Shown here: piece by piece, positions 1 to 64,000 of the stretch
Layout: the number at the start of each line of letters is the position of its first letter
How positions within the stretch are numbered: the stretch's first letter is position 1
IMG/VR virus record: IMGVR_UViG_3300020112_000942
Location: 32,001-96,000 of that record
Strand: one strand, 5' to 3'
Length of the DNA stretch: 64,000 nucleotides
Source: a virus
Lineage: Duplodnaviria > Caudoviricetes
Program-made: the position numbers and the translations under genes
The notes under the pieces: generated by a model
The model's input: only the letters and a program-made list of their open reading frames with translations
Told to the model about the DNA's origin: nothing
Database searches by the model: none

Positions 1-2
1 TT

Positions 3-3000
3 AAAAAATATCTTGAACTTGGCGGCATGGATGAAGAAACCTATAATAAAAATCGAAAAGATGCTAATGGAATTGAAACTATATATCAAGCTTATAGAGC
101 AGGATTGACAACTGAAGGTCTTTAGGCATACGGCGAAAAAATAAATTTATCTGATGAGGAGATAAAAGCTGTTGAGAATTTTGCTTCTGGCAAAGGAGAT
201 ATGTCAAAGAAAGAACTCGACAGATATGCCGACAACTTTAGTAGTGGAACAGAATAGGCTGTCGCTCAGCAACAAGCAGACGAGCAGGCGGCAATTTGGC
301 AAAGCGCTGTCGATAATATTTCAGGTGTTCTCAATAAAAACGCAGAAGACTTTGAAGATTGGAGTTCAAATTAGGTTACAGCATATCAGAATGCCGTTAA
401 CTCAGTTATTAGTACTGCAGGGGAAGATAATGTTGAATCTGCAAAAGAGTATCTGAATGAATTATAGGGATTGTTTGATAAAGAAGGCTTAAGTCCAGAA
501 AAGGCAACTGAATTTATCCAGTCAATTGATTGGTCTAAAGCAAATGCTCTTAATGCCTCCCAATTTAAAGAAGATACTATAAAAACAATTGAAGAAATTT
601 TTGGTATATCAGAAGAAAAAGCAACAGAATATTATGATTTACTTGAATAGAAAGCTGAAGCCGCAAACTTATTCTCACTTGAAGGCGTTGACCTCACTTC
701 TGTAATTGAATATGGAGAAACTATTGATAAGATTTCTAAGGTATTCTCTCAGAGCGGTGATAAATTAGCAGACTATTTTGCACAAGGAACTGAGTATGCG
801 TCTGTATTAGCAGAAAACTATGAAGATGTTGATAAAGTTTTGAGAGACCTCGAAAAGGCAGGCATGAAAAATCTTGAGAATGTGCTGCAATATAATGAGG
901 CTACTGGAGAATATGAGTTACATACAACAGAACTTTAGAAGATAATGAACAGATATTCTTCAGAGGCACTGGAGAATCTGAAAAGAGAAAAGAAGGCAAA
1001 TGAAGAACTTATTAGACAAAAAGAAGAAGAAATTTCTAAACTTGATAAAGCCAAAGATGAAGATGCTGAAACAATTGAAAAATTAAGACAAGAAGTTGCT
1101 CAATATGAGGCGGCAAATGATGCTCTCGATTCTACAATCAATAACGTTTCTAATTTGAATGGTTTACTTGACCACACAGTAAACAATTGTAAAAATGCTG
1201 CTTACTGGCTTGGTAAAATGGGCGATTATTCAGGGTCATTCTCTAAAGCTCTTAGTGATATGACATCTGATGGTTTCTTAAAAGCGAATACACTTAAGGA
1301 ATTACAATCAACATTCAAATATAGTGGTATTGATATTAGCTCAATGCTTGGTAATGACTTAAGCATTAATGCAGGCGAGTTTTATAATAGTTTATTGAAT
1401 GAAATAGATAAGCAAATTGCAGATGGTAGATATGCTAATGCAACCAAGGAAGAGCGATTGTAGCTTGCTGCTTGGCGTAGAGAGATACAAATGACATATA
1501 ATGAGTATCTTGATAAACAGGCAGAATTTAAAGATGAAGCAGGCAAAAAACAAGAAGAGTTAAGAAAGGCTAATGAGGCTTATGCTAAGCAGTTAGAGAC
1601 CGTAGCAGAAAAACAGAAGAAGTTAAATGATACTATTGATAAATATAATGACCTTGTTTATGGAAAAGATAATCGTGAGTCTGGTCTTGATATGCTTTAT
1701 AACTACGATACTGCAATTGAGGCATTTACAGATGAACTCACCAGAGCAAAGGATGCGTTAAGTGATGTAAAAACAATAGACGAGGCTACCGAAGCTATCC
1801 AGAAATATACTGGAGCAACTCATGCATTGCTTGCTGAACAAAGAGCTAAAAAAGCTACCATTCAGGCTGGTCTTGATAACTATGCTAATCAAATTGAAAA
1901 CGGTAGCGTTTCATATTATGATAGTTATAATGGAAAACAGGTTAGTGCTAATTTTGGTGATTACGCTCGCCTTGATGAAAGAACTGGAAGATATGTACTT
2001 AATTAGCAGTTATTAAATAGAGCTAAATTTAATGATGACTTCAAGAACTTAATTGAAAAGAACATTGAAACATACAATAAGTACAAAACAGAAATGGAAA
2101 AAATTGATGATGAAATTCTTAAACAAGAAAAAGAACTTGAAGAATATCGTAAACAAAGCCTTGCTAACTATGTTAAAATGGAGCAAGAGATTGCTGAGGC
2201 ATTGAAAGCTGCATATGAAGAATAGATAGATGATTTAAAAGATAAGTATGACTCAATGAAAGACGCTGACGATGATTACCTTGATGCTTTATAGGATGCA
2301 ATTGAAAAACAGAGAAAATTAAGAGAAAAAGAAAATAAATATGAAGAACTGGCACAAAAAGAAAAGAAACTTTCTTTGATGCAAAGAGATACATCTGGTG
2401 CTAATGCACTTGAAACTCGTCAACTTGAAAAGGAAGTTCAAGACGACAGACAATCATTGCTTGACTCTGCAATTGATGATGTTATTGATGGTCTTTCTAA
2501 GTTATATGAATCACAACAAGAACTTAGAGACGAAGAGATAGAATTGAAAGAAGCACTCCTCGAAAATACTATCTACTGGAATTCTCAAGCAGAAGGACTT
2601 GCAGCATCATTCACTTCTACAGAAGAATATATGAATTATATGGCTGGTCTTTCAACAGAGTTTGCTGAAATGACTTTAGCTTAGCAAGAACAAAAACTCA
2701 ACGAATATGGAGAAACCTATTCACAAGCAAGTGCTTATATGGCAATGGTTGCTATGGATAATGCAAGTGAAACTGGCGACTTTATAGTTGACGTAACAAC
2801 AGTATCTGGTGAAGAAGTTTCAACAATCGTTGCTACAACAGCAGAGACATTTACTTCAGAAGTAACTCGTGCATATGACGAGACAACTGAAAACTTCAAG
2901 AAGAATTTGTAGGACGCTGAAGCAGAAATTCAAAGTGCTCAGGCTGATTTACAAGAAGCTGTTAATAAACTTGCTGAATGTGCGACAGCAGCTAATGCAG

Positions 3001-3752
3001 CGGCCGAGGCTTATAGAAGAGCAAAAGAGGCTAAGGAAGATGCAGAAGGATGGAATCCAGATTTTGGTGGCTCTCCTGAAGTGCAAAAGGACGCTGCGGC
3101 TTCACAAGTCGCATCCTCAATTTATTCAAGACTTACTGAGGCTGGTGTAAATCACAATGCCCTTGATGATATTAGTCATAAAACAAGTGGTGCTGAAGAA
3201 CTTGCTACTATGGTTAGACAATTAAATGTAGACAAAAAAGGAACTGTATTTAATTTTGAATCCGAAGAGGAAGCAAAGATTGTAGCAGATGCATTTAAGA
3301 ATAATGGCAATGATAGATTTATTGGTAGAGTCGGAGATGAATATAGAATATTCAAAGATGAAAGCGAGAGAAATAGATGGATTGATTCTAATGCTTATTC
3401 AATGAAGGGTAACGTTAAGAAATATTTAGGCGGTGGACTTGTAGACTACACTGGTCCTGCTTGGGTAGACGGTACCCCAGAAAGACCTGAATCATTCCTT
3501 AATGCCGAAGACACAGCTCGTATCGGTAGTGCCGCAAAAATCTTATCAGACATTCCACTTCTTGCTGACTCTGACAGAGCAGAAAGAATAGTTAACAACT
3601 CAGTTGGTGACACAAATATTGAAATTCATATGAACATTGACCATATTGATTCTGACGTAGACCTTGAAGAAGTTGTTGAAAGAGTTAAGGACGAAGTTGT
3701 TGCAGTCGCAAGACCTGCTGGCACAAACGTCATTCTCAATCAACACGTATAA
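3..3752 (+). CDS. Tape measure protein, C-terminal part (5' truncated; read through about 11 in-frame TAG)
   Basis: Track ORFs 945, 1491, 2376 and 3081 share one frame, broken only by TAG (e.g. 123, 1461, 2004, 2682) and ending TAA 3750. Long helical K/E/A-rich product with a typical TMP C-terminal motif (GGGLVDYTGPAWVDGT..PE). Confidence 0.85.
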
Positions 3753-3803
3753 TATTTAATGGCGTCGCTCTGCGGCGCCACCCATGATAAGGAGGGATTA
3801 AAC

Positions 3804-4520
3804 ATGAATTTCGTTCCACGTTTAACCAAACCAGAGGCCGGCAATAAATATTATATCACCAAAGCGAAAGGCGGCTGGTCAACTGCAATCATCGGTAGTC
3901 CAACCGATGCCGACTGTAATGTTCTTGCCAATTGCGTGGGGTACGCTTTTGGAAGATTCAATGAGATTGCGGGTAATGAAAAGATGACATATCTTCTTCC
4001 CGTAAATGCAGAAAACTTTTTTAGTGTTGCTAAGTCACAAGGATTACAAACAGGTAGTGTTCCTAAACTTGGTGCCATTATGTGCTGGGCAAAGGGGCTC
4101 GCAGGCGTAAGTAGTGACGGAGCAGGTCATGTGGCAGTAGTCGAAAAAATTATTGATGATACTACTGTCCTTACATCAGAGTCTGGATATGGATGTGCAA
4201 ATCCATTTTGGACTTCAACTCGTAAAAAGGGAGATGGAAACTGGGGTTCTGGTGGTTCATATACCTTCTTAGGTTTTATTTATTAGCCAGAAGACATTCC
4301 AACACCAATTCCTACTCGTACAATTGTTAAGGGGATGCAAGGAGAGGATGTAAAGTTGATGCAACAAAAACTTGCAGATAATGGATACCTAAGACAGAAT
4401 GAAGTTGATGGTGATTTCGGTAAAATTACACTCGGCGGTTTGCTTGCTTACCAATTTGAAAACGGATTGGAAGTAGATGGCAAATGCGGAAGAATGACTA
4501 AAAATTCATTAGGTATGTAA
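3804..4520 (+). CDS. CHAP-domain peptidoglycan hydrolase with C-terminal PG-binding domain (one in-frame TAG)
   Basis: NCVGYA, GHVAVVE and SES CHAP motifs. TAG 4284-4286 continues in frame to PG_binding_1-like GEDVKLMQQKL..VDGDFG..T. RBS AGGAGG; stop TAA. Confidence 0.85.
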
Positions 4521-15497: not shown

Positions 15498-16304
15498 TCA
15501 GCTCTTGGAGACTACTCCAGTTGAACCAAAACCGCCAGCACCACGGTCTGTACTTCCAAGTTCCTCAACGCTATCAACTTCCTCCCAAGTAATCATAGGA
15601 GTAGGAGCGATAAGGAGTTGAGCAATTTTCATGCCCTTATCAACAACATAGGGAGTATCTCCAGTGTTGTTAATAATAATACCAATTTCACCACGATAAT
15701 CAGTATCAATAGTTCCAGGTGCATTTGCAACTCTGAGCTTTGTCTTATAGCTAAGGCCGCTACGAGGTCTTACCTGAATCTCGTAACCAACAGGAATAGC
15801 AACTGCAAGACCTGTCTTAACAATCTTTGTTTCGCCGGCACCGATTGTTACTTCCTCAACTGCACATACATCACAGCCGGCATCTGTTACATGAGCATAT
15901 TCAGGAATAATTGCGTCTGGATTGAGCTTTGTAATCTTAACCTTAACTGTCTGTCTACCGCTGACAAGAAGTCTTGCATAAACATCAAGAACAGATTCCA
16001 TCATTGTATGGATAAACGCCTTCTTCTTATCAGAGATTGTCTCGTCTTCATCAAAAATCTGAAGGAAATCTTCGATTGCAGCTCTGCTCTCTTCAACAGA
16101 ACCGAGAGGAAGAACAGACATCTGCTTAAGCATATCCTTCTGGAACTCTTCGCTTTCATAAGTTTTTAAAAGGCTTTCTTTAAGGAACGGATACATGACA
16201 TCAAACTGTTCGTCCGGATAAGAAAGAATTTCAATGAACTTCTTAGCAACATCCTCTTCAATGCCAGGAGTTCCCATAAACATATCTTTTACTTCATTCT
16301 TCAT
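15498..16304 (-). CDS. dut: Trimeric dUTPase with about 120-aa N-terminal extension
   Basis: AGCD, RPRSG, GTIDTDYRGEI, IAQL and RGAGGFGSTG motifs. Confidence 0.92.
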   Translation of the reverse strand: MKNEVKDMFMGTPGIEEDVAKKFIEILSYPDEQFDVMYPFLKESLLKTYESEEFQKDMLKQMSVLPLGSVEESRAAIEDFLQIFDEDETISDKKKAFIHTMMESVLDVYARLLVSGRQTVKVKITKLNPDAIIPEYAHVTDAGCDVCAVEEVTIGAGETKIVKTGLAVAIPVGYEIQVRPRSGLSYKTKLRVANAPGTIDTDYRGEIGIIINNTGDTPYVVDKGMKIAQLLIAPTPMITWEEVDSVEELGSTDRGAGGFGSTGVVSKS

Positions 16305-17088
16305 CTTCGTATAAACCTCCATTTACATCGGTGCTGATTTTGTCAATGACGCCAAGTTTAAGAGCCTTTTCTGCATCAAAGAACCAGTCGTCCTTTTTAT
16401 GTTTGTCGTATGTTTCCACACTAATATTTGTACAACCAATTGTGTGACTCTTGAGTTTGCCAAGAAGCATTTCATAATACTTCATATTCTGTCTTGCTTT
16501 ATGAGCATCACCATGATATCCGCCGCTACCCTCATGGAACAAAAACGTAGCATTGGGAAAGGCATATCTTTTATGACCTGCAATTGCAATAAAGAAACCA
16601 CCGCTGAAAGCAGTACCAGTAACAATTGTGTACACAGGTGTTTTTGAGTTCTTAATTGCATCAACAATCTGGAATGTGGTTGTCAAATCGCCGCCAGGAG
16701 AATCAATATAAATCTGAATAGGAATCCTCTCTTCAACCGGTGTTTTATTAAACGCATCTTCTGCGTTCCAAAACTGAATACGTTCAAGAATATCATGTCC
16801 TGTATCAGTTGTCATATTGAGAATGGAAGGACCATCGCAAAGTGTGGCTCCAGAAGTAATTTCGCTGTTGATATACAACTTACGCTCAACAAACTGATAT
16901 TTGTCAAGTACATCACTTGGATTGAAATGCTCTTCTGGTGCTGTGAATAGTGTCATAAAGTCTGGAGATTCTTCTGAGGTATTAGCCTCCAGCTCCCCAT
17001 AAATCTCTTCCATCTGGGCAAAGAACTCTTCCTTTTTCTTTAGTGTTCCATCGGGATTCATAAAGTCGATTCTGATTTCGTCGCTCAT
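16294..17088 (-). CDS. clpP: ClpP-family protease
   Basis: IYIDSPGG, AFSGG (Ser), FLFHE (His), AEKALKLGVID. Confidence 0.85.
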   Translation of the reverse strand: MSDEIRIDFMNPDGTLKKKEEFFAQMEEIYGELEANTSEESPDFMTLFTAPEEHFNPSDVLDKYQFVERKLYINSEITSGATLCDGPSILNMTTDTGHDILERIQFWNAEDAFNKTPVEERIPIQIYIDSPGGDLTTTFQIVDAIKNSKTPVYTIVTGTAFSGGFFIAIAGHKRYAFPNATFLFHEGSGGYHGDAHKARQNMKYYEMLLGKLKSHTIGCTNISVETYDKHKKDDWFFDAEKALKLGVIDKISTDVNGGLYEDEE

Positions 17089-17249
17089 TGTTCCTCCTTG
17101 CCTTCAACAGCGTCAATCTGTTTACGAAGGTCTTCAAGTTCTTTAGTAAGTTCAGCTACTCTCGGATTAAGGGTAAAGATATTTACCGTTAAGGATTGCA
17201 GCTCTTTTGTTTTCTCTGCGTAAGAGAACTTTAGTGCTTCAATATCCAT
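17085..17249 (-). CDS. Small coiled-coil hypothetical protein (54 aa)
   Basis: RBS GGAGG, downstream of the promoter, ATGA overlap with clpP. Confidence 0.6.
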   Translation of the reverse strand: MDIEALKFSYAEKTKELQSLTVNIFTLNPRVAELTKELEDLRKQIDAVEGKEEQ

Positions 17250-17274
17250 TTCTATCCCTCCTCTTTATATTATA

Positions 17275-17303
17275 ATTATACCACAATTTACAAATTAAGT
17301 CAA
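17275..17303 (-). promoter_or_regulatory. sigmaA promoter
   Basis: TTGACT-17-TATAAT with extended TG. Confidence 0.85.
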
Positions 17304-18197
17304 CCATTCGGCTTTTAATTCTTTGTAAGTAATTTTTGACGGGTCTTGTCTTAATAAGAGTCGATATTTGAAATTGAGATAATCAGAAGGATTGAAATTA
17401 GCACCCATAAAGTCTTTAAAACTTCTGCGACTTGCAATTGCCCAGCTACGAAGGTTACTTTCAAAAGTAGATGTTGGTGTACCATAGAAACGTACTGGTT
17501 CATCACTTAATGTTTTTGCGGCGAGAGCATAGATGAATAAATCTTCCTTATTCTTTGCGTGAAATTCAATTCCATAATAGGGAGTTAAACTTAAATACTC
17601 TTCACCATAGAAATCTGTAGGTAAAACAATTGTTGATTTGCTTGTGTTAAGTTTAGAAAATTCAAGTGCAGTATTCAAATCATTTGTTTTTACAGGTCTA
17701 ACAAACTTAATGTTGTTATCAAACTCCTTAAACACATCTATCCAATCAGACTCCATAAGGAAATCTCTGTCATTGACATAAGTAATACCAGAGCCTTTTC
17801 TAAAGCCTGTAAAATCCTTTTCTCTCCAATCAATTAAACTATTAGTCTTTATTGACTGATACAAAGATTTATTCTTAATTCTATCGCTATTTATATCATA
17901 TGGAGCGAAAGAAGGTGCATATCCTTTAGTAGTATCAGAAAGACCAGATTCTTTTAAGAACCCATAACCGAAAAATTTACTCTTCTCTTGGTCTATTACC
18001 ACGCCTTTTGGAACTGGTAATTGTGGGCTATCTTTAAAGTAATAAATCTGATTATATCTTCCTGTTTTTTCATAAGGTTTCATTAAGACCACTTGATGTG
18101 ATGAAACCAATCTTTCGTAAACTTTCATGAGCGGGACACTCAAATTGAATGTCCCACCATGATTGAAGTCTACATCGTATAAACCGATTGTAGCCAT
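17295..18197 (-). CDS. Hypothetical protein coupled to dnaE
   Basis: 300-aa ORF with TAATG overlap; N-terminus IGLYDVD..NL..PLMK resembles a conserved phage family. Confidence 0.6.
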   Translation of the reverse strand: MATIGLYDVDFNHGGTFNLSVPLMKVYERLVSSHQVVLMKPYEKTGRYNQIYYFKDSPQLPVPKGVVIDQEKSKFFGYGFLKESGLSDTTKGYAPSFAPYDINSDRIKNKSLYQSIKTNSLIDWREKDFTGFRKGSGITYVNDRDFLMESDWIDVFKEFDNNIKFVRPVKTNDLNTALEFSKLNTSKSTIVLPTDFYGEEYLSLTPYYGIEFHAKNKEDLFIYALAAKTLSDEPVRFYGTPTSTFESNLRSWAIASRRSFKDFMGANFNPSDYLNFKYRLLLRQDPSKITYKELKAEWLT

Positions 18198-21100
18198 TAT
18201 TCTACCTCCGCACGTTCTGTCTGAGAGAGAGTGATGAATCCTTCATTATCCATTTCCTCAATCTTCTCAAATAATGGGTATGATGTACTCTTATATTTCT
18301 TTGGTACAAAATCATCGCCACGGCGGATACCTGTGATGATAAGTTTATTACCCCTTGCGAAGAAACTCTTTTCAACAACAGTCTTTGTACCATCGGGATT
18401 CTTGCGGCTAAGCTGTCTATCCCATTTTGCATACTGATTCTTCCAAACCTTTACGTTAACAACTTGCATTGTTGGAGTAAGGATTGTTACAGTACTCTTA
18501 TTCTTATCCTTGTCGATTACTGTACCGCAAACACGAGAAATCTCATACATACGGATTACGCCGCCATCCTTAGCAAAAAACTCACTGGAGATAACTGGCT
18601 CTTCATCCAAGTCTTCGAACTGAACAATATTATAAGCGTGGAACTTAAGGTCTTTTAATTCGTGGTCATGACAGTATGTTCCAAGAGAATCCATATCCCA
18701 CTTATCAATACTACCAAGAGCGTACTTCTCTCTTACTTCTTCGTATAAACTCTGATTAAGAGTATCAAGAATCTCTTGCTGATTTGACTTCATCCAAGCT
18801 CTGAGTGTGTCCATAGTTTTATCGTATGTCTTATCCCAGATTGTCTGTAAAATCTTACCATGACTGTATTCTTCATCAATTACTGCGTCTTCAAGTACAT
18901 CTGTATCATAATTGTCTACAAAGAATCTCATTGCAATTGCATCAAGTTTGTAATGCTTACCTTCCTTGAACTGTCTAATGTATTTTGTAAAGTTATATAC
19001 CTTAGTTTCAAACTCATATTCTTCAGGAATTAATCCCTTTCTTGATAACATTGCCATATTCTGAAGAGTAATTCTTTTCTTCTTATCTGCAATAATATCA
19101 AGATAATCAGCCATTGCCTGCATTCTATCGTTGTGAAGATTATCAAACGCACCAGACTTAATAAGTGAAATCATTTGAGTCTTATTAACCTTTACCTTTG
19201 ACATAAAATCTGAAATTGAAATGTAAGGTCTGTTATTGATAATTTCAAATACAAGATTTGTACCTACTCTATCAATACCCTTTAAACCATAGATGATAGC
19301 ACCTTCACCAACATCAGGCTTAAAAATCAAATCAGACTTGTTAATGTCTGGCGGCAAAACCAAAATACCATCTCTCTTGGACTTACCAAGAGCAACGCTG
19401 ATTTTACCATAGTTAACAGACTTGTTTTTCTTCTTTGTGTCATCCTCTTCTTCATCATTCTCTCTATCAACATCATCTGCTTCAAGCAAATCTGCACCAC
19501 CTGCATTTGTAATCAAGCAAGCACAGTTCCAATAAATATCGGGATAAGTAGTTGCCAATAACAAAGTTTGAATACCAACGAATGAATAAGCTAAAGCATG
19601 AGGCTTAGCAAAAGCGTAGCTCATCTGAGGCTCCATGACTGTTGTCCAAACATATGCTCCAAGTGCGGCAGTTGGACACTGAGAAATAAACTTCTCTCTT
19701 AATGCAGGTACTTCCGCAATCTTTTTCTTCGCAACAACTTTTCTTGCATAGTTTGCTTCACTCAATGTGAAATGAGCAATATTCTCATCAAGGCAAACTT
19801 CCATCAAGTCTTCCTGTGATGCTGGAACACCATAGTTAGGAAGATAATATGGTTCAAGTATCTTAACTTCTTCCTGTGTAAGACCGGCGGCATGAGTTTC
19901 ATCATACCAGATTTGCATATCAGCCTTAAGGCGGCAATATCTATCAATTGGTCTTTCCTTGCCAGGTTCACCCATAAGTCTCATAAGTGCATTTGCTGAA
20001 GTCATTTCAAGAGGAGTTCTTGGTTTAATCTGCTTAGCAGTTGTAAGTCCAACACCAGTACTGAACTGGAAAACATCAAGAACCTTACCTTCGCCAAGTG
20101 CGTCCCATAAAGCTGGATTCTTAATATCAATAACCTCTGGGTGAAGATATCTGTCATATGCCTGTCTCAAAGTAAGAGATGGGTCCATAAAGTTATCCTT
20201 TTGGAGAAGAGATACTGCAATCGTAATCTTATCACAAATTTCAGTTACAAGGAAGTCGTACTTAACGTCTCCGAGAGATTCAGCTTCGTGAAGTGAATAC
20301 TGAGTTGTTAAATCACCATTCGGACTTCTCATAATCGCATTTGTGTCATAAGGATTATCGTTATAAAGAATTACACCAGATGCGTGCTGACCTCTCTTAT
20401 TAACAAGTCCATCAATAGATTCGATAATTTCAAGAAGACCAGGATACTTGTTCAGCTCATTTACCAAAGCTAAGATAGGCTTTCTATCCTTTTCATCATT
20501 GCCATAAACAGCATCGTGAATTGACCATAAGAAACCTCTCTCCTGTGGAATTAATGAACTGAGATACTGAGAAATCTCAACATCAATACCATCTGGAAAT
20601 TCCTGTGAACGATAACCTCTGCAGGCTGCGGCGATTGCTGAACGAGTTCCTTCTGTACCATAAGTACAAACCTGAATAACGTTCAACTCGCCACGTTCTT
20701 TTCTGATTGCCTCAAAAATCTTCTTACGCTTTGAAGGAGTAAGGTCGATATCAATATCGGGCAACTCAATACGCTCTTCGTTAAGGAATCTCCAATGCTT
20801 TAATCCCCATTTGATTGGGTCAAGCTGTGTGATACCAAGAAGATAATTTGAAAGGAAACATACGGCAGAACCTCTTCCAGGTCCTACGATTGAACCGTTA
20901 TCCCAAAACAAGTTAATGAAGTGCTGGAATGTATTGAAGTATTCATAAAGACAGTTTCCGAGTTTATCACCAACTGTCTTAATTACCTTAGCCTCTGTTT
21001 CAAGACGCATAAGATATTCGCTCTGCCATAAATCCTTTTCAATGAGTCCGATAAGACATTCTGTTACCCAATACTTTTCTTGAACATTATCGCTACCAAG

Positions 21101-22126
21101 AAGAGCAGTAAGTGTTGGACATATATCCTTATAATCCCAATCAACCGAAACAGGAGCTTTCTTCAACTCTACATCTACTCTTGGAATGATTGGATTGTGG
21201 AAAATTTCATACTTACCAATCTTATCGTAGATTTCCATAGAGTTCGCACAGAATTTTACGAACTCTTCCTCTGTGAATGTATCTTTTAAATTCTCATATG
21301 CTTCTTCATTATCCATCATATGAGAATAAGCGTAGAACTCATCAACTTCTCTGTCTGCCTCTTTGGAGTTAAGATATGCTTTGTGAACTGGTCTTTCCTT
21401 TGCTGTAAGATAATGTGCGTCAGAACCAATTACCATTTTAACTTTATACCAAGCGGCGATTGATTTAACTCTTTCATTGAACTTAATCTGGTCTTTTGAA
21501 CAAGCTGCGGCAATTTCAATATAGAAATCTTCTCCGAACAAGTCAATATTAAACTTCATAAATTCATCAATCTTTGACTTCCACCAATAAATGTCCTGCT
21601 CATTCTGCGTCTTCTCTGCCTTAATAAGTTCAAATACAAAGTGTGGAAGTTCACCACCAATACAGGCGGTTGTTGCAATAAGTGAGCCAGGAAACTTCTC
21701 AACGATAGCTTTAAGTTCATCTTTCTGAGTTGGAACTCTCATCATACCACGAGAAATTCTTGCATTATACCATGCAATGGAGCTAAGCTCACGCAATGCC
21801 CTGTGCCCAACCGTATCCTTTGCAATGAGAATGTAGTGCCAATATTTTTCAACATTATCTCTGTCATCAACGAGATAAATCTCATTACCACAAGCACACT
21901 TGAAGTCTTCAGGAATCTTTCCTTCCTTCTTCAACTTCTTTTCACATTCCAACCACTGTACGTGTCCCGCAACAGTTTCGTGGTCTGTCAATGCAATTCC
22001 TGACATACCCAATTTATATGCTGTGAGAATCATATCCTTTGGTCTGTTTGTTGAGTCAATCAATCTAAAATTTGAAAACTCACTATGAGAATGAGTATCA
22101 AATCTTTTTTCCTTTGTGATGTCCAT
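18197..22126 (-). CDS. dnaE: DNA polymerase III alpha subunit (family C)
   Basis: PHP motifs HSHSEFS and ALTDHE; GPGRGSA; LPDIDID; KYDFL; SYAFAKPHA; C-terminal OB fold; no TAG. Confidence 0.96.
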   Translation of the reverse strand: MDITKEKRFDTHSHSEFSNFRLIDSTNRPKDMILTAYKLGMSGIALTDHETVAGHVQWLECEKKLKKEGKIPEDFKCACGNEIYLVDDRDNVEKYWHYILIAKDTVGHRALRELSSIAWYNARISRGMMRVPTQKDELKAIVEKFPGSLIATTACIGGELPHFVFELIKAEKTQNEQDIYWWKSKIDEFMKFNIDLFGEDFYIEIAAACSKDQIKFNERVKSIAAWYKVKMVIGSDAHYLTAKERPVHKAYLNSKEADREVDEFYAYSHMMDNEEAYENLKDTFTEEEFVKFCANSMEIYDKIGKYEIFHNPIIPRVDVELKKAPVSVDWDYKDICPTLTALLGSDNVQEKYWVTECLIGLIEKDLWQSEYLMRLETEAKVIKTVGDKLGNCLYEYFNTFQHFINLFWDNGSIVGPGRGSAVCFLSNYLLGITQLDPIKWGLKHWRFLNEERIELPDIDIDLTPSKRKKIFEAIRKERGELNVIQVCTYGTEGTRSAIAAACRGYRSQEFPDGIDVEISQYLSSLIPQERGFLWSIHDAVYGNDEKDRKPILALVNELNKYPGLLEIIESIDGLVNKRGQHASGVILYNDNPYDTNAIMRSPNGDLTTQYSLHEAESLGDVKYDFLVTEICDKITIAVSLLQKDNFMDPSLTLRQAYDRYLHPEVIDIKNPALWDALGEGKVLDVFQFSTGVGLTTAKQIKPRTPLEMTSANALMRLMGEPGKERPIDRYCRLKADMQIWYDETHAAGLTQEEVKILEPYYLPNYGVPASQEDLMEVCLDENIAHFTLSEANYARKVVAKKKIAEVPALREKFISQCPTAALGAYVWTTVMEPQMSYAFAKPHALAYSFVGIQTLLLATTYPDIYWNCACLITNAGGADLLEADDVDRENDEEEDDTKKKNKSVNYGKISVALGKSKRDGILVLPPDINKSDLIFKPDVGEGAIIYGLKGIDRVGTNLVFEIINNRPYISISDFMSKVKVNKTQMISLIKSGAFDNLHNDRMQAMADYLDIIADKKKRITLQNMAMLSRKGLIPEEYEFETKVYNFTKYIRQFKEGKHYKLDAIAMRFFVDNYDTDVLEDAVIDEEYSHGKILQTIWDKTYDKTMDTLRAWMKSNQQEILDTLNQSLYEEVREKYALGSIDKWDMDSLGTYCHDHELKDLKFHAYNIVQFEDLDEEPVISSEFFAKDGGVIRMYEISRVCGTVIDKDKNKSTVTILTPTMQVVNVKVWKNQYAKWDRQLSRKNPDGTKTVVEKSFFARGNKLIITGIRRGDDFVPKKYKSTSYPLFEKIEEMDNEGFITLSQTERAEVE

Positions 22127-22219
22127 ATCTTGTCCTCCTTCTTCAAGCCGCCGAGCCATTCAGCAGGGGCATTAAGTCGTTGTACATTTTATTTGTTTTT
22201 CTTAACCTTTTCTATATAT

Positions 22220-22248
22220 ATTATACCATAATTTTATAGAAAAGTCAA
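22220..22248 (-). promoter_or_regulatory. sigmaA promoter of dnaE
   Basis: TTGACT-17-TATAAT. Confidence 0.85.
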
Positions 22249-22255
22249 TAATTTA

Positions 22256-22792
22256 TTATTCAAAATTAACAGTATGCTCGTTTCCTTCTTCATCACGCCA
22301 AGTTAAGCTAAGAATCTTTGAAATAGTCCAACATGGAACAGATGGCGGAGTAGGCGCTTCGCCTGGGAATGCAGTTCCTCTTTGGAAAGTTTGAATATTG
22401 TTTTCACCTGTAAGTTCATTGCCAAACCAATGATTATTAGCGTATTGCTCACAATCTCTTGTATCAACGTGGCAGGCATTATTCATTATACCAATACCAC
22501 CAAATCCAACTCTTTCAGCTACCTCAGCGATATCATATCCTGTGTAATAAGAGCCGTCCTATTTCTAAACTGAGATATCTGCAGCGAGACCAAGAGTGTG
22601 AGCATCATTAGCAAAACCGCCAACAGCTACACTACAATTAGGACATCTATAGCCGCTATTAACGTATACGGCTTTTGCGCCCATAATACCGTGTAATTTC
22701 TCCAATCTCTACACGAGAATCTAACTCACGTCAGGATTGTTTCCGCAATTGCACTTAAACTCTGTGCTGTCAAAATGTTCTGTAAGTTTCAT
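22256..22792 (-). CDS. Peptidase M15A-family peptidoglycan peptidase (178 aa, 4 TAG)
   Basis: Read-through gives MKLTEHFDSTEFKCNCG...NSGYRCP...AHTLGLAADI...GGIG...CHVDTR. TAG at 22721, 22709, 22565 and 22559; RBS AGGAGG. Confidence 0.85.
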
Positions 22793-22810
22793 TAAAACCC
22801 CTCCTAATAT

Positions 22811-22836
22811 AAAAGGGTCAAGTAAAACTTGACCCC
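22811..22836 (-). terminator. Intrinsic terminator upstream of the M15 gene
   Basis: GGGTCAAG-tttta-CTTGACCC followed by TTTTAT on the minus strand. Confidence 0.7.
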
Positions 22837-22841
22837 AAGAA

Positions 22842-22961
22842 TTACTTCTTGTTTTTCTCTTTATTTTTCTTCTGAATCTCACGATTCATACGAGCAATAT
22901 CTTCCTTGTTCTTTTCAATACGACGCTTGAAGTCTTCTTTTTCGTCTCTATGGAACTTCAT
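22842..22961 (-). CDS. Small basic peptide (39 aa)
   Basis: RBS GGGAGG, ATG..TAA, K/R/E-rich. Confidence 0.5.
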   Translation of the reverse strand: MKFHRDEKEDFKRRIEKNKEDIARMNREIQKKNKEKNKK

Positions 22962-22975
22962 TCTATCTCCTCCCT

Positions 22976-23080
22976 TTATTCATCTCTGTTGTTTAACAAA
23001 TCGCCTATGTCTGTCCAGAAAAGACCATTGACTGCGTTACCAACAAATATGATACCAAGTATTATTAAAAAAGTTTTCAC
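22976..23080 (-). CDS. Small membrane peptide (34 aa)
   Basis: GTG start; hydrophobic FLIILGIIFVG. Confidence 0.4.
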   Translation of the reverse strand: MKTFLIILGIIFVGNAVNGLFWTDIGDLLNNRDE

Positions 23081-23085
23081 TTATA

Positions 23086-23286
23086 TCACCATTGTTTCAC
23101 AAGGGTTACAATAACCCATTCATCAATGATTTCACCTTTAGACTTCTTGTCCTTCTTTACCATTTTATAAGATTTGAGTTCATATCCCTCAACATTCTCA
23201 TCCGCCTTAGCCTGCTCAATAAGAGCTTTAGCCTCAGTCTCATCGTTTACTCTCCACTCTTCAGTTCTTTTACAAAGTTCACCCAT
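23086..23286 (-). CDS. Hypothetical protein
   Basis: RBS GGAGG; in the operon. Confidence 0.6.
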   Translation of the reverse strand: MGELCKRTEEWRVNDETEAKALIEQAKADENVEGYELKSYKMVKKDKKSKGEIIDEWVIVTLVKQW

Positions 23287-23322
23287 TATTATTTCCTCCC
23301 TTATTCTTATAAATTTCATCTC

Positions 23323-23655
23323 TCATTTTGTGAAATGTTCTACTCCACGTGTACTTAGTGCTTCACTAATTGCTACAAGAACTTCATCAGTAGCAATTTC
23401 AGCACTTATGCGACCAATCCTAATATCATTTAATATTCTCTCTTTATAAGCTTGTATTGCTAATTCAACTGGAACGAGTCTTTTTCCACAGCAAGGACAA
23501 AATTGCATTATTGTTTCTATGGCATACATTTTATCTGTATTTGGTATTTCTGCGGTACTACTAAGGGGTTCCGCTTTTCCATGAAATTTTTTACAATAAT
23601 AACATTCTCCATCAAGACCCTCAGGAGAGAAATATGTTACACTGATTCCGCTCAT
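23323..23655 (-). CDS. Zn-ribbon hypothetical protein
   Basis: CYYC ... FCPCCG. Confidence 0.6.
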   Translation of the reverse strand: MSGISVTYFSPEGLDGECYYCKKFHGKAEPLSSTAEIPNTDKMYAIETIMQFCPCCGKRLVPVELAIQAYKERILNDIRIGRISAEIATDEVLVAISEALSTRGVEHFTK

Positions 23656-23669
23656 TTATCATCTCCTCC

Positions 23670-37614: not shown

Positions 37615-37639
37615 GAAATTAATCCTGACTTTCTTCCTT

Positions 37640-37879
37640 TTAATCGCCAAATCCACCAGAAAGCATATCATCTTCCTCTCGACTTAGCTCATCAATAGCA
37701 TTTTGAATCGCCTTTTTATATGGCGGCATAGGATTATAGTATTCATTGCAACAATTTACTTGTCGCTGATTTGGCGTACCAAGGCAAAGTTCGCAATTTC
37801 CGCAACCTTCCGCTCCACCATTTGACTGAGCAAGGGCACAGGTCTTGCAAATACAAAAATTACATTTTGAAGCACCCAT
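37640..37879 (-). CDS. Cys-rich small protein (possible metal/Fe-S binder)
   Basis: CxxCxCxxC, CxxCxxC and CC; TAATG-coupled to the FTR gene. Confidence 0.55.
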   Translation of the reverse strand: MGASKCNFCICKTCALAQSNGGAEGCGNCELCLGTPNQRQVNCCNEYYNPMPPYKKAIQNAIDELSREEDDMLSGGFGD

Positions 37880-38106
37880 TACATTTCCTCCTTTACATAG
37901 AGGCCGCAATGACAAGTCTCTCCCACTTGCACCTCTTCACGAAACGCCTTGCAAGGACAAATAAAATCTTCGTGATTTTCTGCTGAATAGAAACCACAAG
38001 GAACACAAGGACAATACCTTTCTCCATATAGTTTTTTATTCTTTGCAAGTTTATCCTTGATTTCTCCAACAAGAACAATATCTTCTTTACTAACTGTAAA
38101 CTTCAA
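37879..38106 (-). CDS. Ferredoxin-thioredoxin reductase catalytic-subunit-like protein
   Basis: Signature YCPC...ICPC...CHCGLY; start approximate (TTG after GAGGTG). Confidence 0.85.
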   Translation of the reverse strand: MKFTVSKEDIVLVGEIKDKLAKNKKLYGERYCPCVPCGFYSAENHEDFICPCKAFREEVQVGETCHCGLYVKEEM

Positions 38107-38611
38107 TTCCAAGCACCTCTTCAATATTTTTAGCATATTGATTATCCGAAGCTAATCTTATACCAAGTAAATCATCATATCTTCCTTCATTATCTGGGAT
38201 AAATCTACCAAATTTGATAATAATATTGGCAAAACTATGACCATGAATATACAGCTCTCTATACTTGCAACGGTCAATCTCTGACTCATTATATCCAGTA
38301 TAGATAACTAAATCAACATTTTTAAGTTGCCACGCTTTTGAATCTTGAACGAACTTCATCAAATCATAGAAATCATCAAAAGGTTCAAGACCTCCAATAA
38401 CAATTGCTTTTATTACTGGATTGTCGGCTACTGTTTGCAATATATTTTTATTATCAAAATCAATAGTAGGTGAGGCGGCGAGCGGTGAATTTTGACACAC
38501 CGCTCTACCACACTCTTTATCACATTTGAAACTACAAGTATGTGTACCGATAAATACACACGGAGTCTTATAGTTTACCAAATCCAAAAAGTTTATGTCT
38601 TTTACTTTCAT
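38087..38611 (-). CDS. nrdG: Anaerobic RNR activase (radical SAM)
   Basis: CSFKCDKEC, GGLEPF, IYTGY, LASDNQ; ends TAG-TAA. Confidence 0.85.
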
Positions 38612-40557
38612 TTACTCTCCAATTTGTTAATGCTTGCCCAACGTCTCATACTGTATTCTGCTTTTCTTGGCTTAGACCAAGTTGTAATCTTTGTCATAAA
38701 TCCAACAACACGAGTATACTCACCAGACATTGGCTTACCGCAATGAGGACAAGTTGTACCATAGAATGCATGGTTATCCTCACAACACTGAATCTTTGTA
38801 TTAAATGCAAAATATGTTACGCCCTTATCAGCTACATATTCTGTCATTGAACGAGCCTTCTCATAAGAGTCAAATGGAGCATCAATGTTCGCATGAAGAA
38901 TTGAACCGCCGTTACAGAATCCATCAAACATAGCCTGAACTCTTACTCTCTCTTCAAGTGTAGCCTGAATACCAAGTGGCATAAACTGATTACCATAAAG
39001 AGGAAGGTCGTAAATCTTAGCTGTAGGATAGAAGAATCTGTCTTTCCTCATAAGTTTTGCGGCAGCATTTTCGCCAGGAATCTGCTCTGTGTTTATCTTA
39101 TAATCGCATTCGTTCTCTTCGATAAACTTATCTGCCACTTCACGAATTGTCTTGAAGATTCTTTCACCAAACTCGGCAGCCTCCTGTGTGTAGAATGTAT
39201 TGCCGAGCTTATCCTGATATGTACAACCGAATTTCTTCATTGTCTCATAAATGCCGATAAATCCAACTGTGTTATAAAGATGCTCAAAGTCAATAAGTCC
39301 ATAAGAGAAGTTTGGAAGAAGTCCTTTCTCAACATTTCTCTTGATGATATGACGAACAACATGGAGAGCACGAATAGCACAAAGAGTTCTTTCTTCCAGC
39401 TCTTTGATATACTCATCCTTTGTATTTGTATCAAGGGCAAGTCTTGCAAGATTAATTGTATTAACCTTTACAGAACCAACCTTGAGTGCAGTACCACCAA
39501 TAGAATTGAAATATCCGAGGTCACGAATATCACTCTTAAGGCGGCAACAATTGGAAAGGCTTGATACATTATCGTCAATAAACATATTACTGTCAGACCA
39601 AATCATATTGTGTCTGATTGCCCATTCAGCAAACTCTTCATCAAGGAACTTACCATCCTTACGAACAAGGGAAATGGTAGAAACAGGGAAAGTAAACATA
39701 TTTTCCTTTCTTACCTCTGCCATTTCTTCCATATAGAGTTTCTGGAAAGCAACAATTCCTTCAATATGGTCAACCATAAATTCACCATTAGGGAACTCTG
39801 CTCCGCCGAATAACGCCATAAGATATTCACGGTCAAATACAGAAGTATTTGTAAATGCAGACTGCTGTCCATCACGAACGCAAGGCTGATTTACCGCATA
39901 TATGAATCTCTGAACCTGCTGTCTTGAAAGAGTTTCAAAATCTGTCATACCGAGATACTTATTCTCAATATCCTTCTTACAGAAGTAATATAAATAAGGA
40001 ATAAGATTTGGTAATCCAACAGCACCAGAAGTTCTGTTACTTGCAAAATTGATATACTCCTTTACAAAATCAACAAAAGTCTCAGCGTGTTTTGGTGGCT
40101 TAGCATTGAAAGAATCACCGAGGAAGTATAGACCTCTTTCTGCAACGTCCTTTAAATCATAAGCGAAACAGTATGATTTGAATGTTGATGTGTCTGCGTC
40201 GTGAAGATACAGCTCTCCTACCCATTCACGTCTTAACCAGTCGTTGGCAGCGGAAAATCCATAAGCCTCCTGAAATTCCTGATAAATCTTATTGAAAGCA
40301 ATAAGTTTTCTGTGTGGCTTAGGCATTTCTGTAAGTAAAGTTACAATATCGCTACGACCAACATTACTGTTTGGGTCAATACTTGCATCAGCAACAACCT
40401 TGGTATCAACGAAATTATCCAAAAATTCAAGATGATTAAGTTGCTCATCTGCAAAACCGTTTAACTTGGCAAGCTCAGTACCATACTCATTCTGCATTTG
40501 GTTGTATCGAGTGGTAAAGTTCTTTCCGCATTTGATGTTAATTAGCATTTTGTTCAC
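38608..40557 (-). CDS. nrdD: Class III anaerobic ribonucleotide reductase
   Basis: LYLHD, YC, FTFPV, SNCCRL, EQIPGE, CPHCG and glycyl-radical loop TRVVGF. Confidence 0.93.
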   Translation of the reverse strand: MNKMLINIKCGKNFTTRYNQMQNEYGTELAKLNGFADEQLNHLEFLDNFVDTKVVADASIDPNSNVGRSDIVTLLTEMPKPHRKLIAFNKIYQEFQEAYGFSAANDWLRREWVGELYLHDADTSTFKSYCFAYDLKDVAERGLYFLGDSFNAKPPKHAETFVDFVKEYINFASNRTSGAVGLPNLIPYLYYFCKKDIENKYLGMTDFETLSRQQVQRFIYAVNQPCVRDGQQSAFTNTSVFDREYLMALFGGAEFPNGEFMVDHIEGIVAFQKLYMEEMAEVRKENMFTFPVSTISLVRKDGKFLDEEFAEWAIRHNMIWSDSNMFIDDNVSSLSNCCRLKSDIRDLGYFNSIGGTALKVGSVKVNTINLARLALDTNTKDEYIKELEERTLCAIRALHVVRHIIKRNVEKGLLPNFSYGLIDFEHLYNTVGFIGIYETMKKFGCTYQDKLGNTFYTQEAAEFGERIFKTIREVADKFIEENECDYKINTEQIPGENAAAKLMRKDRFFYPTAKIYDLPLYGNQFMPLGIQATLEERVRVQAMFDGFCNGGSILHANIDAPFDSYEKARSMTEYVADKGVTYFAFNTKIQCCEDNHAFYGTTCPHCGKPMSGEYTRVVGFMTKITTWSKPRKAEYSMRRWASINKLESK

Positions 40558-40756
40558 CTACCCATTTAATTGCATCGGCAAATTCAAAAGCGCCATGGTC
40601 TGTTACAAGAATCGGAACAGTTGTGTATCCCCATGCAGTACAGAACTCCATAATCTCTTGATTGTCGTCGCATAATTCATACTCAATTCCTGCGGCGTCA
40701 AGTTTCTTTTTCAAAACTTCACACTTAGGACAGTGAGTGGTATAAAGTTTAACCAT
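40538..40756 (-). CDS. NrdH/glutaredoxin-like redoxin
   Basis: CPKC and TVP motifs. Confidence 0.85.
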   Translation of the reverse strand: MVKLYTTHCPKCEVLKKKLDAAGIEYELCDDNQEIMEFCTAWGYTTVPILVTDHGAFEFADAIKWVGEQNAN

Positions 40757-50737: not shown

Positions 50738-53700
50738 ATGGCAGATGAGCAGATTAAGTCAAGTCCTGCTGACCACTATTTTGAACCGGATGGTTTAAAC
50801 GCCAATGCAGAGAATATTAGTCATGTGTTAAATGATTTGACAGATATTGTGGCAGATGGCACTCCAGAAGAGGGTGTTGATACTGTTAAATGGAATGGCG
50901 AAAAATTTATTCTTGGAGAAGGCGGCGGAGACATTGATGCAGATGAAAAACAAGCCTTGATGGGCGATGGAGAAGGTGGTGCGAGAGGAGCGTCAGCCGG
51001 CAAAGCATCCTATATGAAAACAGGTAGACCAGATTCGAGTTTAGGTTATCCTGGTTTTTATTATAACGGAATTAATTTTGGATATTAGCTTGCTATTCCA
51101 GGTACTACTGACGGTGCCACAACTCAAAAGTTAACTTCTAACCCTTTGCTTAAAATGCAAGACGACGGAAAAACTGAAATACCACACCATCAGTTGACAC
51201 TTGGAGATGCTGCAAATGTCGATTTCAGTGGTAATTCTTTGGTTGGCATTAGTGGTCAAGACGTTCGTTTTACAATGCATGATAATGCAAAAATGGATTT
51301 AACTGGTGGAGTAAATAGACCAAATGCTGGCCCCGAAGTAATTGCACACGGAAATGCAAAAATCTATATTCAAGACGGATTTTATTATTATGATAGTAAA
51401 AATAAAACAATTCCAGAAAATTATATAGAAATAGGGGGAAGTCAATTAATTTTTACTATTACAAGAAGATGTACGAGTGCACAAAAAGCAATATATGAAG
51501 ACCAAAGTATATGGAGTCAGCCTGGTGCTATTAATGAATTTTTTAATATCGGAAAAGATTCACATCCATATCCATACGCATCAGAAGTAGAACTATTATC
51601 TGCTATGTATATTGATGGTACTAAAGATTATAGACAGCAATTAAAAAAACAAGCACTTAACGTAGATAAAAATATTGTTGGACATTATACTATCGGAGAC
51701 AGGCCATGGCTCATGGTCACAACCCAAAATTCCAATTTTGAATATAATATTGAAAACTTTTTCAATCAAACGGAAACCCTTGTGCACTATACCGGTAAAA
51801 CACAAATATCATCATATAGCTCAGATTTTAAAGTAACGGTAGTTTTTGTAAATAATGCGCCAATATATTTAAAACCTAAAGATGGAAGTGTAACTTATTA
51901 CCCAAATAGAGTATTCAGAAATAAATCTGAAGAATATAATAATCAACAAGGACCTCTTGTCGCCCTAAAAGACTCACCAAAGGTTGTCATTGAAGACGCA
52001 GCAGAGTTGTTTATGGGAGAAACATCAACGCTTTTGATGCAAAATAATAGCGAGATGATAATGGATGGTCAAGGCTGTAAATTGCACGTCCATAATGATT
52101 TTATCGGTATATTGAATTATGGACAATTATTATTTAACGAACCTTCTATTAAAGAATATGATACTAACGGAAGATTGAGTGTTCCACAATTCATAATGGA
52201 TGGTGGTAGAATTCATATCAGTGATGGTAGCGATAGTCCAATAAAATATAATATTGGAACACGTAATGATACAGATAAGCCAGCAACATTACTTGTCTAT
52301 GGACACAGCCGACTTTCAACACATGATTATAGTATTATTAGTACTTATGACTCTTCTCACTTTGAAATGTGTGGAACTTCTGATATTACAATGCATGACA
52401 ATAGCAGAATTTACATGAGTGATTATGCAATGATATCAATGGATGGTATTAAAGGACAATTGTCTCCTGCGATTTGGATGAATTAGCATCAAATTAAGAT
52501 GGGTATTTTTGCAAATAATCGCTTAGGAAATTCAACTGGTAATACAGATATGTATTATAAAAGACCTGCTCCGATGGATTAGAGCTTTATCAATGGACTA
52601 AGAAAAGGCACATCAATTACTGAAGAAGAATACAAGAAGATTTAGTCCTTCTTGAGCGATAGCGGAGGATTTGATAGTAGCCTTCCAATAAAGCAAGACA
52701 GATTTGATACAGAGGTTGAATTAAAAGCGGTATCAAATTGTTATTCATCAATGAGTTATATAGACCCAACAGATATAGATTCCAGTATAATTCAAGAAAT
52801 ACCCAGTTATTATATGGAATTATATTATATTTTTAATCCATCAAAAGATATGACTGACTATGTTAATTCATATCCAACCAATGAAAAAAATGTTTATGGT
52901 ATACCATCATCTACATATGGTGCATTACCATCTGAGCAGCAATCATATTTTAAACCAGTTTACAAAGTAAAGTATATTTCGAGTGTTAACGACATTTTAA
53001 AAAAATACAATAAACAAGATGCTATGAAACAAATGCTTATTGGAACATCCAATCTAGAAAGCAAAAGGATACTATCCACTTTTTTGGATAATCATTATAA
53101 TAAATGGAAATATTACAAAGATAACTATGGAAATAAGTTTTATGTATATCTAATGGAGATTGGCAGTTTTGAGGCAGATGTTTATCGCAGTTAGTATCAA
53201 GGAAATATGATGTTTTATAAAAACATTACAGAAAATGGCAATGAATATATTTTACAATGTGATTTATCCAAACTACTAAACGCAAGAAATGATTTAATTA
53301 AACACGCTCCTTTTGCGGTATTAGAGGGAGGAACATCAATTCAAATTGGTAGCGATGGACAGGGTATTATCATGATAGAGCCAGGAACTGATGAGAAACT
53401 TGGTATTTATGTCATGAATAATTCTTTTATTCAAACAACAGGTAATTCTCATATTGAGTCACATGGTGCAGATGTTATTTTAAGAGACGTTAATAATAAA
53501 GCTCCATGGTTAGATTAGTATGACCAAGGATGGCTTGGAGAACATTGGCGAAGAGATAAGGATGTTAAGACCAACGCTCCTCAATTATAGTTTTATGATA
53601 ATTGTAAGATAAGAATGAGGGGTGTTTGGGAAGAAGAATATCCAGAAAGTCTACCAGCGTTTACTATAACAGAAGACACAGGACTCTCTTTAAATACACC

Positions 53701-54079
53701 TACGGCATATGTTAATCTTACAGATGAACAACAAAAGATATTTACAGATGTAATTGAATCAGAAAAATCAGAACAAATAAAACAAGGTAGAAGATTTAAT
53801 ATAAAAAGTGTTAATAGGATTAGACAAAATTCTTATATTATTTAGATTACCGAAAGCACCCCAGAAGATTTTAATATGCATTTAACAAAAAATGAAAATC
53901 AACCATTGGTAGAAATCATTGAAAATGCAGAAATTCGTCAGCACGGTGATACAAAATTCATTCTTGTTGAAAAAGAGACAGAAATTGATGAAGTAACTTA
54001 TAAAGCAGGTCTTACTATTAAGATTGGTGATGAGCAAGTAACATTAACAATGGCAAAGTTAAAAGAATTATTTGAATAA
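50738..54079 (+). CDS. Large beta-helix-like structural protein, about 1113 aa with about 8 TAG
   Basis: Same-frame track ORFs join through TAG to TAA 54077; 8-residue repeats (TMHDNAKM, LMQNNSEM, TMHDNSRI). Confidence 0.7.
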
Positions 54080-62900: not shown

Positions 62901-63709
62901 ATTCTTATCTTAGCGGAATGCATTTTACCAAGAGCGAGGATAGTTATGAACCAAATGGTAACTGGCAAGAAACAATGGGATATCACGCATACGCTCCGGT
63001 GGATCAAAGTGGCGTAGATGCATAGTTAGCTCGACTATATGGACATAATTTAATAAAAGATTCACAAGATTTAACTTATGGTGAAATAGCAGAAAAGATA
63101 GCGGAAAAAATAACAGGATATGACGAAAACTGGTACTTACAGCAAGCTATAAGGGCACAGAGTAATAGCTGTTGTGATTCTTGGTTCACAGAACAAAATA
63201 AATTATATAGCAATCTAAGTGCAAAATGGAAAGAGAAAGTTGAAACAGCAGTAGTTTCAGACTGGAATTAGCAGATATATGAAAACAGCGGAACTGGTAG
63301 CCATGGTCTTGAAGATACAGAAGGTAATTCTTTTACGGGTCGTGTATATCTAAATTGGCTAACTATTACAATAGTAAGAGTATATGTATTTGGACCAAAT
63401 GGTTTATATGCAAGAGGTTGTTATTTAAGAGGTTTCGATACGGAGACACGAGATTTGTATTTTGATGGCTTTTCTGATGACAATGTTGGCGGAGTAACTG
63501 TTGATTCAACAAGAGAAGGATATTATGTAATATCAAATTCAATGCCAAATTATAACTATGAAAAGTATAAAGTAAAAGGATGGCATAATGGAACTGCGGC
63601 ATACTTTGATGAATTTATCAAGCATAGTGACAAACAATTTGATAAATATAATGTTACTTGGGACCCAGAGTTAATAAAATGGGAAGACCCAGCTGAAAAG
63701 GAGGTGTAA
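59912..63709 (+). CDS. Giant protein paralog 2 (about 1265 aa, about 10 TAG)
   Basis: Joins through TAG to TAA 63707; motif RLLMP...EDLNRNFWVIG. Confidence 0.75.
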
Positions 63710-63712
63710 TGA

Positions 63713-64000
63713 ATGAGCTTACAAGAGGCTTTACAAAAACTTGTTGACGATTATAAATTTGATGCAAGTACAGAGTATAAATTTTGGAAGACATTCCTTG
63801 ATTTCTTTAACGAAATAAAAGCACCATTTTCTTTTAGTAGTGATGACAAAGAACTGGATGTAGTATTAAACTACATCCAGGAGCTTTGCGACATTAAGGA
63901 TGAGGATTTTAAGTCTTAGCTTTATACTGCACTAAAGGATATGACTGAAGCTCCTCTCACTGATGAAACAATTTATTGGAATTAGTCTTTATAGGATTTA
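63713..64000 (+). CDS. Hypothetical protein, 3' truncated (TAG read-through)
   Basis: RBS AGGAGGTG; the frame continues past TAG 63917. Confidence 0.6.

Follow-up and report, generated by a model that had tools for sequence, protein, structure and literature searches.

The 64,000 nucleotides analyzed here (in the following "the window") correspond to bases 32001-96000 of one linear IMG/VR contig of 116,948 bp (IMGVR_UViG_3300020112_000942) with a G+C content of 36.6%. CheckV estimates the completeness of the contig at 74%, so that about 26% of the genome is missing. Searches against Pfam and PHROG revealed the gene set of a tailed phage, including tape measure, Sipho_tail, CHAP, portal, terminase, DNA polymerase III alpha (pol III alpha), gyrase and NrdD genes, and further genes for RecJ, primase, DnaB, PhoH, both gyrase subunits (A and B), NrdG, a collagen-repeat protein, a Cna_B protein and GH25 and GH113 hydrolases (Table 1). 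Many of these genes contain in-frame TAG codons, and the reading of this codon is the subject of our analysis. Taken together, we consider it very likely that the contig derives from a large phage of the siphovirus type that has genes characteristic of phages of Gram-positive (Firmicutes-type) hosts, reads TAG as glutamine (Gln; NCBI code 15) and terminates at TAA and TGA only; a decoding transfer RNA (tRNA) and a timing of its supply are proposed below as parts of this reading.

Genes were called by a greedy, non-overlapping procedure under table 11, with TAG as a sense codon, and with TGA or TAA as sense codons as controls. Table 11 gave 163 genes on the whole contig at a coding density of 84.9%, and 66 of them ended in TAG. 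Reading TAG as sense reduced this number to 99 genes and raised the density to 95.0%, with 78 genes ending in TAA and 21 in TGA, and there was no such gain in the controls. The number of genes with at least 500 amino acids (aa) increased from 10 to 22, compared with 10 for TGA and 12 for TAA as sense. The window behaved in the same way (86 genes, 86.7% density and 7 long genes under table 11; 48 genes, 95.3% and 13 with TAG as sense), and the controls yielded 83 genes with 7 long ones (TGA) and 79 genes with 8 long ones (TAA). In total, 166 in-frame TAGs were found in 39 genes of the contig, 79 of them in 18 genes of the window. As the first-pass annotation had noticed, same-frame open reading frames (ORFs) are separated by TAG only; every joined ORF terminates at TAA or TGA and none requires TAG as terminator. 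Given about 85 off-frame stops per 1000 codons, ORFs of 2640, 2144, 1265 and 1113 aa that are broken by TAG alone are far beyond chance.

The sequence context of the codon points in the same direction. The base following an in-frame TAG is G in a fraction of 0.42 and A in 0.30 of all cases, which is the same distribution as after CAA and CAG (chi-square p = 0.24), unlike the base following real TAA and TGA stops, which is T in 0.45-0.48. One case is ambiguous, as the NrdG-like gene ends with AGT TAG TAA and TAG could terminate there; owing to this tandem arrangement the end point of the gene is nearly identical under code 11 and code 15. TAG is thus a sense codon in this phage. A slight excess of TAGs (46 of 166) lies in the first fifth of the genes, from which we draw no claim.

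For the identity of the encoded amino acid, TAG was masked as X and all proteins were aligned to those of a 122.7-kb contig (G001), which is the nearest of the large relatives, and of 15 further IMG/VR loci; the terminase is 66-84% identical to those of the relatives. In a likelihood test with a substitution profile for each amino acid built from the same alignments, Gln was the best fit at the TAG columns, 42 nats ahead of glutamate (Glu) with G001 and 171 nats ahead of lysine (Lys) with the 15 loci. At the codon level, the positions of G001 opposite the TAGs of our contig are TAG (19), CAA (16), AAA (8), GAA (8) and CAG (5), and the in-frame TAGs of G001 in turn face Gln (46), TAG (19) and Lys (13). 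As CAA is two changes away from TAG and nevertheless dominates over CAG, one-step mutation between TAG and CAG, i.e., mutational proximity, does not explain this pattern.

A third test made use of 120 homologs from a large protein collection for each of three proteins, an alignment that had already been proposed in the first-pass annotation. At 8 of the 12 TAG columns Gln occurs more often than any other residue, and no other residue recurs as majority. The three columns of the RuvC-like resolvase (aa 140, 187 and 208) contain Gln in 119 of 120 homologs, alanine in 79, serine in 31 and Gln in 4, and Gln in 120 of 120, respectively. In the PHROG-4051-like protein of the virion module the counts are 97, 81, 86 and 118 for Gln and 80 for Lys in the fifth column, and in the M15 peptidase 68 and 71 for Gln, 42 for Lys (Gln 20) and 48 for Glu (Gln 5). 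Under three independent tests (likelihood, codon level and database homologs) we count the correspondence of TAG to Gln as supported by sequence comparison, and TAG very probably specifies Gln in this phage, just as the first-pass annotation had suggested.

The three examples on which that suggestion was based differ in weight. The TAG within EDI-TAG-LQ of the RuvC-like resolvase occupies the nearly invariant Gln column at aa 140 and is the only strong one among them. The TAG within ITI-TAG-LMGSNG had been placed at the usual Gln of the Cna-B motif, but this column turned out to be variable in 587 Cna_B domains of 148 representative proteins (Lys 102, asparagine 84, Gln 75, Glu 59); the site is compatible with Gln, yet not diagnostic. 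For the comparison of two paralogs, CAG at 57985 (N-Y-Q-T-N-Y-Y) and TAG at 61472 (N-Y-TAG-N-N-Y-Y) are both in frame and both motifs lie where they had been located. Paralog 1 indeed has Gln at this site, but paralog 3 has Lys, the other TAG sites show mixed residues, and the pairwise identity of paralogs 1-3 is only 25-33%, which makes this example weak. The residues tallied by tblastn in Geobacillus virus E3, a distant standard-code phage, and in phAss-1 varied too much for an assignment and were discarded as residue evidence. PDB sequences, queried with the Cna_B region and with the RuvC-like protein, yielded no useful match.

Table 1. Features of the window and of the adjoining contig, with their in-frame TAG codons.
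Feature	Position in window	Strand	Evidence	In-frame TAGs and remarks
Tape measure protein, C-terminal 1249 of 2640 aa	1..3752 (contig 27830-35752)	+	PHROG tape-measure families, E = 7e-54	12 in window, 30 in whole gene
CHAP + PG_binding_1 cell-wall hydrolase	3759..4520	+	Pfam PF05257 5e-13, PF01471 5e-12	1
Distal tail protein with Sipho_tail domain, 1091 aa	4621..7896	+	Pfam PF05709 8e-13	3
Tail-associated protein, 2144 aa	7896..14330	+	ORF joined across TAG only, ends with TAA; colinear homologs in G001 and G003	18
RuvC-like Holliday junction resolvase, 245 aa	14755..15492	-	PHROG 827, 159	3 (aa 140, 187, 208)
Replication core: pol III alpha, RecJ, primase, DnaB, PhoH, gyrase A, gyrase B	15498..37915	-	Pfam	0; TAG-bearing ORFs within the span are the M15 peptidase and one doubtful ORF only
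Peptidase M15 / endolysin-type, 178 codons	22256..22792	-	Pfam PF08291 8e-12, PHROG 894 endolysin 1e-22	4, no CAG; between pol III alpha and RecJ
NrdG-like radical-SAM activase	38087..38611	-	Pfam Fer4_12	ORF end TAG-TAA
Anaerobic ribonucleotide reductase NrdD	38608..40596	-	Pfam PF13597 4e-89	1 (codon 13)
Three genes, 162, 130 and 434 aa	41524..43665	-	One with DUF2726; homologs in G001 and G003	1, 1 and 4
Collagen-repeat protein, 826 aa	47246..49726	+		0 (61 Gln codons)
1113-aa protein	50738..54079	+	No family match in Pfam or PHROG	8
Paralog 1, Cna_B domain, 999 aa	56911..59910	+	Pfam PF05738 6e-10	5, including aa 599 in ITI-TAG-LMGSNG
Paralog 2, 1265 aa	59912..63709	+		10, including 61472
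Paralog 3, start of a 992-aa protein	63713..64000 (contig 95713-98691)	+		3 in window, 14 in total
Sigma-factor candidate	outside (contig 2549-3757)		PHROG 5767, E = 2e-23	4; just upstream of terminase

The use of TAG differs strongly between gene classes. The virion and tail block contains 6.6 TAGs per 1000 codons (15% of the Gln-type codons, i.e., TAG, CAA and CAG), the second plus-strand block 4.2 (12%) and the minus-strand block for replication and nucleotide metabolism 1.6 (5%). The split is sharpest for 14 core replication genes (6300 codons) with no TAG among 179 Gln-type codons, compared with 95 of 626 in the virion module (Fisher p = 1e-11). The sole clearly real TAG-bearing gene inside the replication core is the M15 peptidase, whose true start is Met31 of a longer ORF, where all database homologs begin. 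Recoded codons are therefore concentrated in virion and lysis genes and lacking from the core replication genes, as expected from the model of Borges et al. (bioRxiv 10.1101/2021.08.26.457843). The density of TAG per gene also correlates with that in the relative G003 (rho 0.53, p = 1e-6). The choice between the other Gln codons varies with gene class as well: CAG is favored over CAA in the replication genes without TAG and in some virion genes with few TAGs (e.g., 31:8 and 23:4), TAG-rich tail genes favor CAA over CAG (83:43 and 48:25), and several genes of the abundant-virion type with a strong CAG preference have none or one TAG each. The collagen-repeat protein without any TAG lies beside heavily TAG-bearing neighbors, and its homolog in G003 has 9 in-frame stops.

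A decoder for TAG was searched for on the contig and in its relatives. Neither ARAGORN nor Rfam (E up to 1 for contig 1-20000 and 95001-116948, gathering threshold for the rest including the window) detected a tRNA on the 74% of the genome that the contig covers, and a BLAST search of the contig with the tRNAs of the relatives carrying the anticodon CUA, tRNA(CUA), gave nothing. A relaxed ARAGORN run returned noise only and was rejected. A release factor with RF-1 domain and a class Ic synthetase were found neither on the contig nor in four relatives. The search of the remaining genome for tRNA(CUA), glutaminyl-tRNA synthetase (GlnRS) or a release factor, as recommended in the first-pass annotation, was thus negative for this incomplete contig. 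In contrast, five large relatives carry 9-48 tRNAs each, and four of them (G001, G002, G003 and G004) have a tRNA(CUA); ARAGORN labels every CUA anticodon "Pyl". G003 has 186,457 bp with an end overlap of roughly 200 bp and is 100% complete, and bases 2549-116713 of our contig are colinear with G003 170479-52668. The segment of G003 that is absent from the contig holds 47 of the 48 tRNAs including both tRNA(CUA), and the nearest of these tRNAs lie about 900 nt past the position of the right contig end.

The acceptor ends of these tRNAs fit a suppressor derived from tRNA-Gln. U1-A72 is an identity feature of tRNA-Gln for the bacterial GatCAB amidotransferase. U1-A72 together with A73 is present in all four tRNA(CUA) of G001 and G003 and in all three tRNA-Gln of G003, and in only 1 of about 50 other tRNAs. 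As no decoder was detected on the contig itself, we infer it from the relatives; that the suppressor lies on the missing segment, is charged with Gln and acts in timing is likewise inferred.

Several observations weigh against the reading of TAG as a Gln codon that is supplied late by the phage. Four of the 12 homolog columns have no Gln majority and read Lys, Glu, Lys and alanine/serine, suppressor tRNA, release factor and GlnRS were not found on the contig, and the cell-wall hydrolases GH25 and GH113 of the window have no TAG. The assignment of early and late genes was made by gene function and strand only. Moreover, 1-2 in-frame stops, with stops of any kind counted, occur in some replication genes of G001 and G003 (e.g., RecJ), so that a strict rule of standard-code early genes may not hold across the clade. 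With respect to the residue, 3 of the 12 columns are led by Lys or Glu and both rank next after Gln in the alignments with the relatives, which speaks for a sense codon with a meaning other than Gln, such as Lys, Glu or pyrrolysine. However, Lys and Glu are the usual substitutes of Gln and true Gln codons give the same spectrum, Gln is ahead of both by 42 to 192 nats, two columns are virtually pure Gln, and the relatives' tRNA(CUA) share the acceptor-end features of their tRNA-Gln. A different amino acid is therefore highly improbable. We attach still less weight to the assumption that the in-frame TAGs are real stops, caused by decay of a defective phage, by assembly errors or accompanied by low-level leaky readthrough. 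Code 11 then simply gives fragmented genes, and such fragments sit in a public protein collection: the Cna_B protein (58588-59910) is found there as P0254 (58 aa) and P0242 (399 aa), two code-11 fragments that meet at its last TAG, the one of ITI-TAG-LMGSNG. But the frames are broken by TAG alone and never by TAA or TGA, they are open for up to 2640 codons, and 19 TAG positions are kept as TAG in G001 at only about 50-80% protein identity. Furthermore, 30 leaky stops in one gene would leave essentially no full-length product, which makes this explanation practically negligible.

It is also conceivable that TAG is a Gln codon of the host and that the phage follows the host code and brings no suppressor along. 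This would fit the missing tRNA(CUA) on the contig and the finding that TAG suppressor tRNAs were detected in only 40% of the TAG-recoded phage genomes, but the same study predicts standard-code hosts for these phages (Borges et al., bioRxiv 10.1101/2021.08.26.457843). The complete avoidance of TAG by the 14 replication-core genes would be needless in a code-15 host, four relatives have their own tRNA(CUA), and the contig is broken just before the position of the relatives' tRNA array. Hence, we regard a recoded host as very unlikely.

A phage-encoded tRNA with the anticodon CUA, derived from tRNA-Gln, is the likely decoder of TAG and may be part of a tRNA array on the missing part of the genome. 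Early genes would be translatable under the standard code of the host, and a likely consequence is that translation of the virion genes and of one or more cell-wall peptidase genes would remain incomplete until the suppressor tRNA is expressed. A gating model of this kind has been proposed for code-15 phages (bioRxiv 10.1101/2021.08.26.457843). Both ends of the contig lie outside the window. The left end (contig 1-60) consists of about three copies of the AT-rich tandem repeat ATATATAGATATATACAT. The last 29 bases of the right end (116920-116948) match a sigma-70 promoter at 11 of 12 positions (TTGACT, a 17-nt spacer, an extended -10 TG and TATAAT); this putative promoter faces outward and points toward the place of the relatives' tRNA array. 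The AT-rich repeat and the promoter match are each better explained by a break in the assembly than by a natural end of the genome, and the repeat is the likely cause of the break at the left side. Exact matches to a 39-mer taken from the right end were found in neither viral nor metagenome contigs, and an exact-protein look-up was empty as well.

The candidate for a sigma factor upstream of the terminase is itself recoded, and the homologous genes of G001 and G003 have 11 and 13 in-frame stops, respectively; the label is derived from PHROG 5767 only, and Pfam gave no match. We therefore put forward, as a tentative and rather speculative idea, a timed lock with two layers: the host-type promoter at the right end might drive the array with tRNA(CUA), upon which the sigma-factor-like regulator, the embedded peptidase and the virion genes could become translatable. 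This would represent the hypothesis of Borges et al. in an unusually clean natural layout.

Gut phages with TAG recoded to Gln are well known from earlier work, as the first-pass annotation correctly stated, and our contig is a genuine but unremarkable example. Borges et al. (bioRxiv 10.1101/2021.08.26.457843) described it for several clades including large Firmicutes-infecting phages, with recoded structural and lysis genes and replication genes in standard code. Our contig resembles these code-15 clades in the alignment of TAG with Gln, the recoding of structural and lysis genes with a heavily recoded lysis-type gene, the tRNA(CUA) of the relatives, the large genome and the predicted Firmicutes host. 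It differs in that no suppressor tRNA was found on the contig and in its TAG-free GH25 and GH113 genes. Metaproteomics confirmed Gln at TAG in crAss-like phages (Peters et al. 2022, PMC9523058). The crAss-like phages and the Lak megaphages share the reassignment but are unrelated lineages with Bacteroidetes hosts, and some Lak phages encode release factor 2, which was not found on our contig or in the four relatives.

The closest cultured phages according to the terminase are Geobacillus virus E3 (KP144388; 39% identity) and Alicyclobacillus phage KKP_3916 (37%), and phAss-1 is at 32%; a megablast search with an 8-kb stretch gave no match among GenBank phages. E3 and KKP_3916 are large Firmicutes siphoviruses with a similar order of virion genes, but their genes are annotated as unbroken under the standard code and they are too distant to tell the residue for TAG. 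The long tailed phage phAss-1 (OQ749652, about 136 kb, "Caudoviricetes code 15 clade"; Babkin et al., PMC10607447) has the same features: it reads TAG as Gln, has NrdD/NrdG and a replication module of the pol III alpha type, lacks an aminoacyl-tRNA synthetase, carries tRNA-Sup-CTA genes, and code 11 breaks its terminase, tape measure, portal and tail fiber genes. phAss-1 is only distantly related, and membership in the proposed genus Phassvirus, whose species share 82.7-86.4% nucleotide identity, is not indicated, as there was no megablast match to phAss-1. In addition, the suppressor tRNAs of phAss-1 adjoin nrdD, whereas the matching intergenic space in the window (40597-40903) holds no tRNA.

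The practical consequences concern mainly the annotation. Calls under code 11 break about 40% of the genes of this phage, including tape measure, tail proteins, resolvase and peptidase, and hence annotation, protein clustering and host-range inference will be wrong for the contig and its relatives unless code 15 is used. The contig adds one more large lineage of Firmicutes-type siphoviruses to the known code-15 phages, and the very clean split between TAG-free replication genes and TAG-bearing virion genes could suit a test of late-gene gating if the host is found.

Two further observations concern individual genes. The true start of NrdD may be a GTG at 40557, in which case its single TAG at codon 13 would precede the coding region. 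The pol III alpha of G001, the homolog of the gene at 18197-22159 in the window, matches in separate pieces at about 41.2-42.6, 38.3-38.7 and 33.4-34.9 kb, which suggests that the G001 gene is interrupted by insertions, e.g., introns, inteins or homing elements, which our contig lacks.

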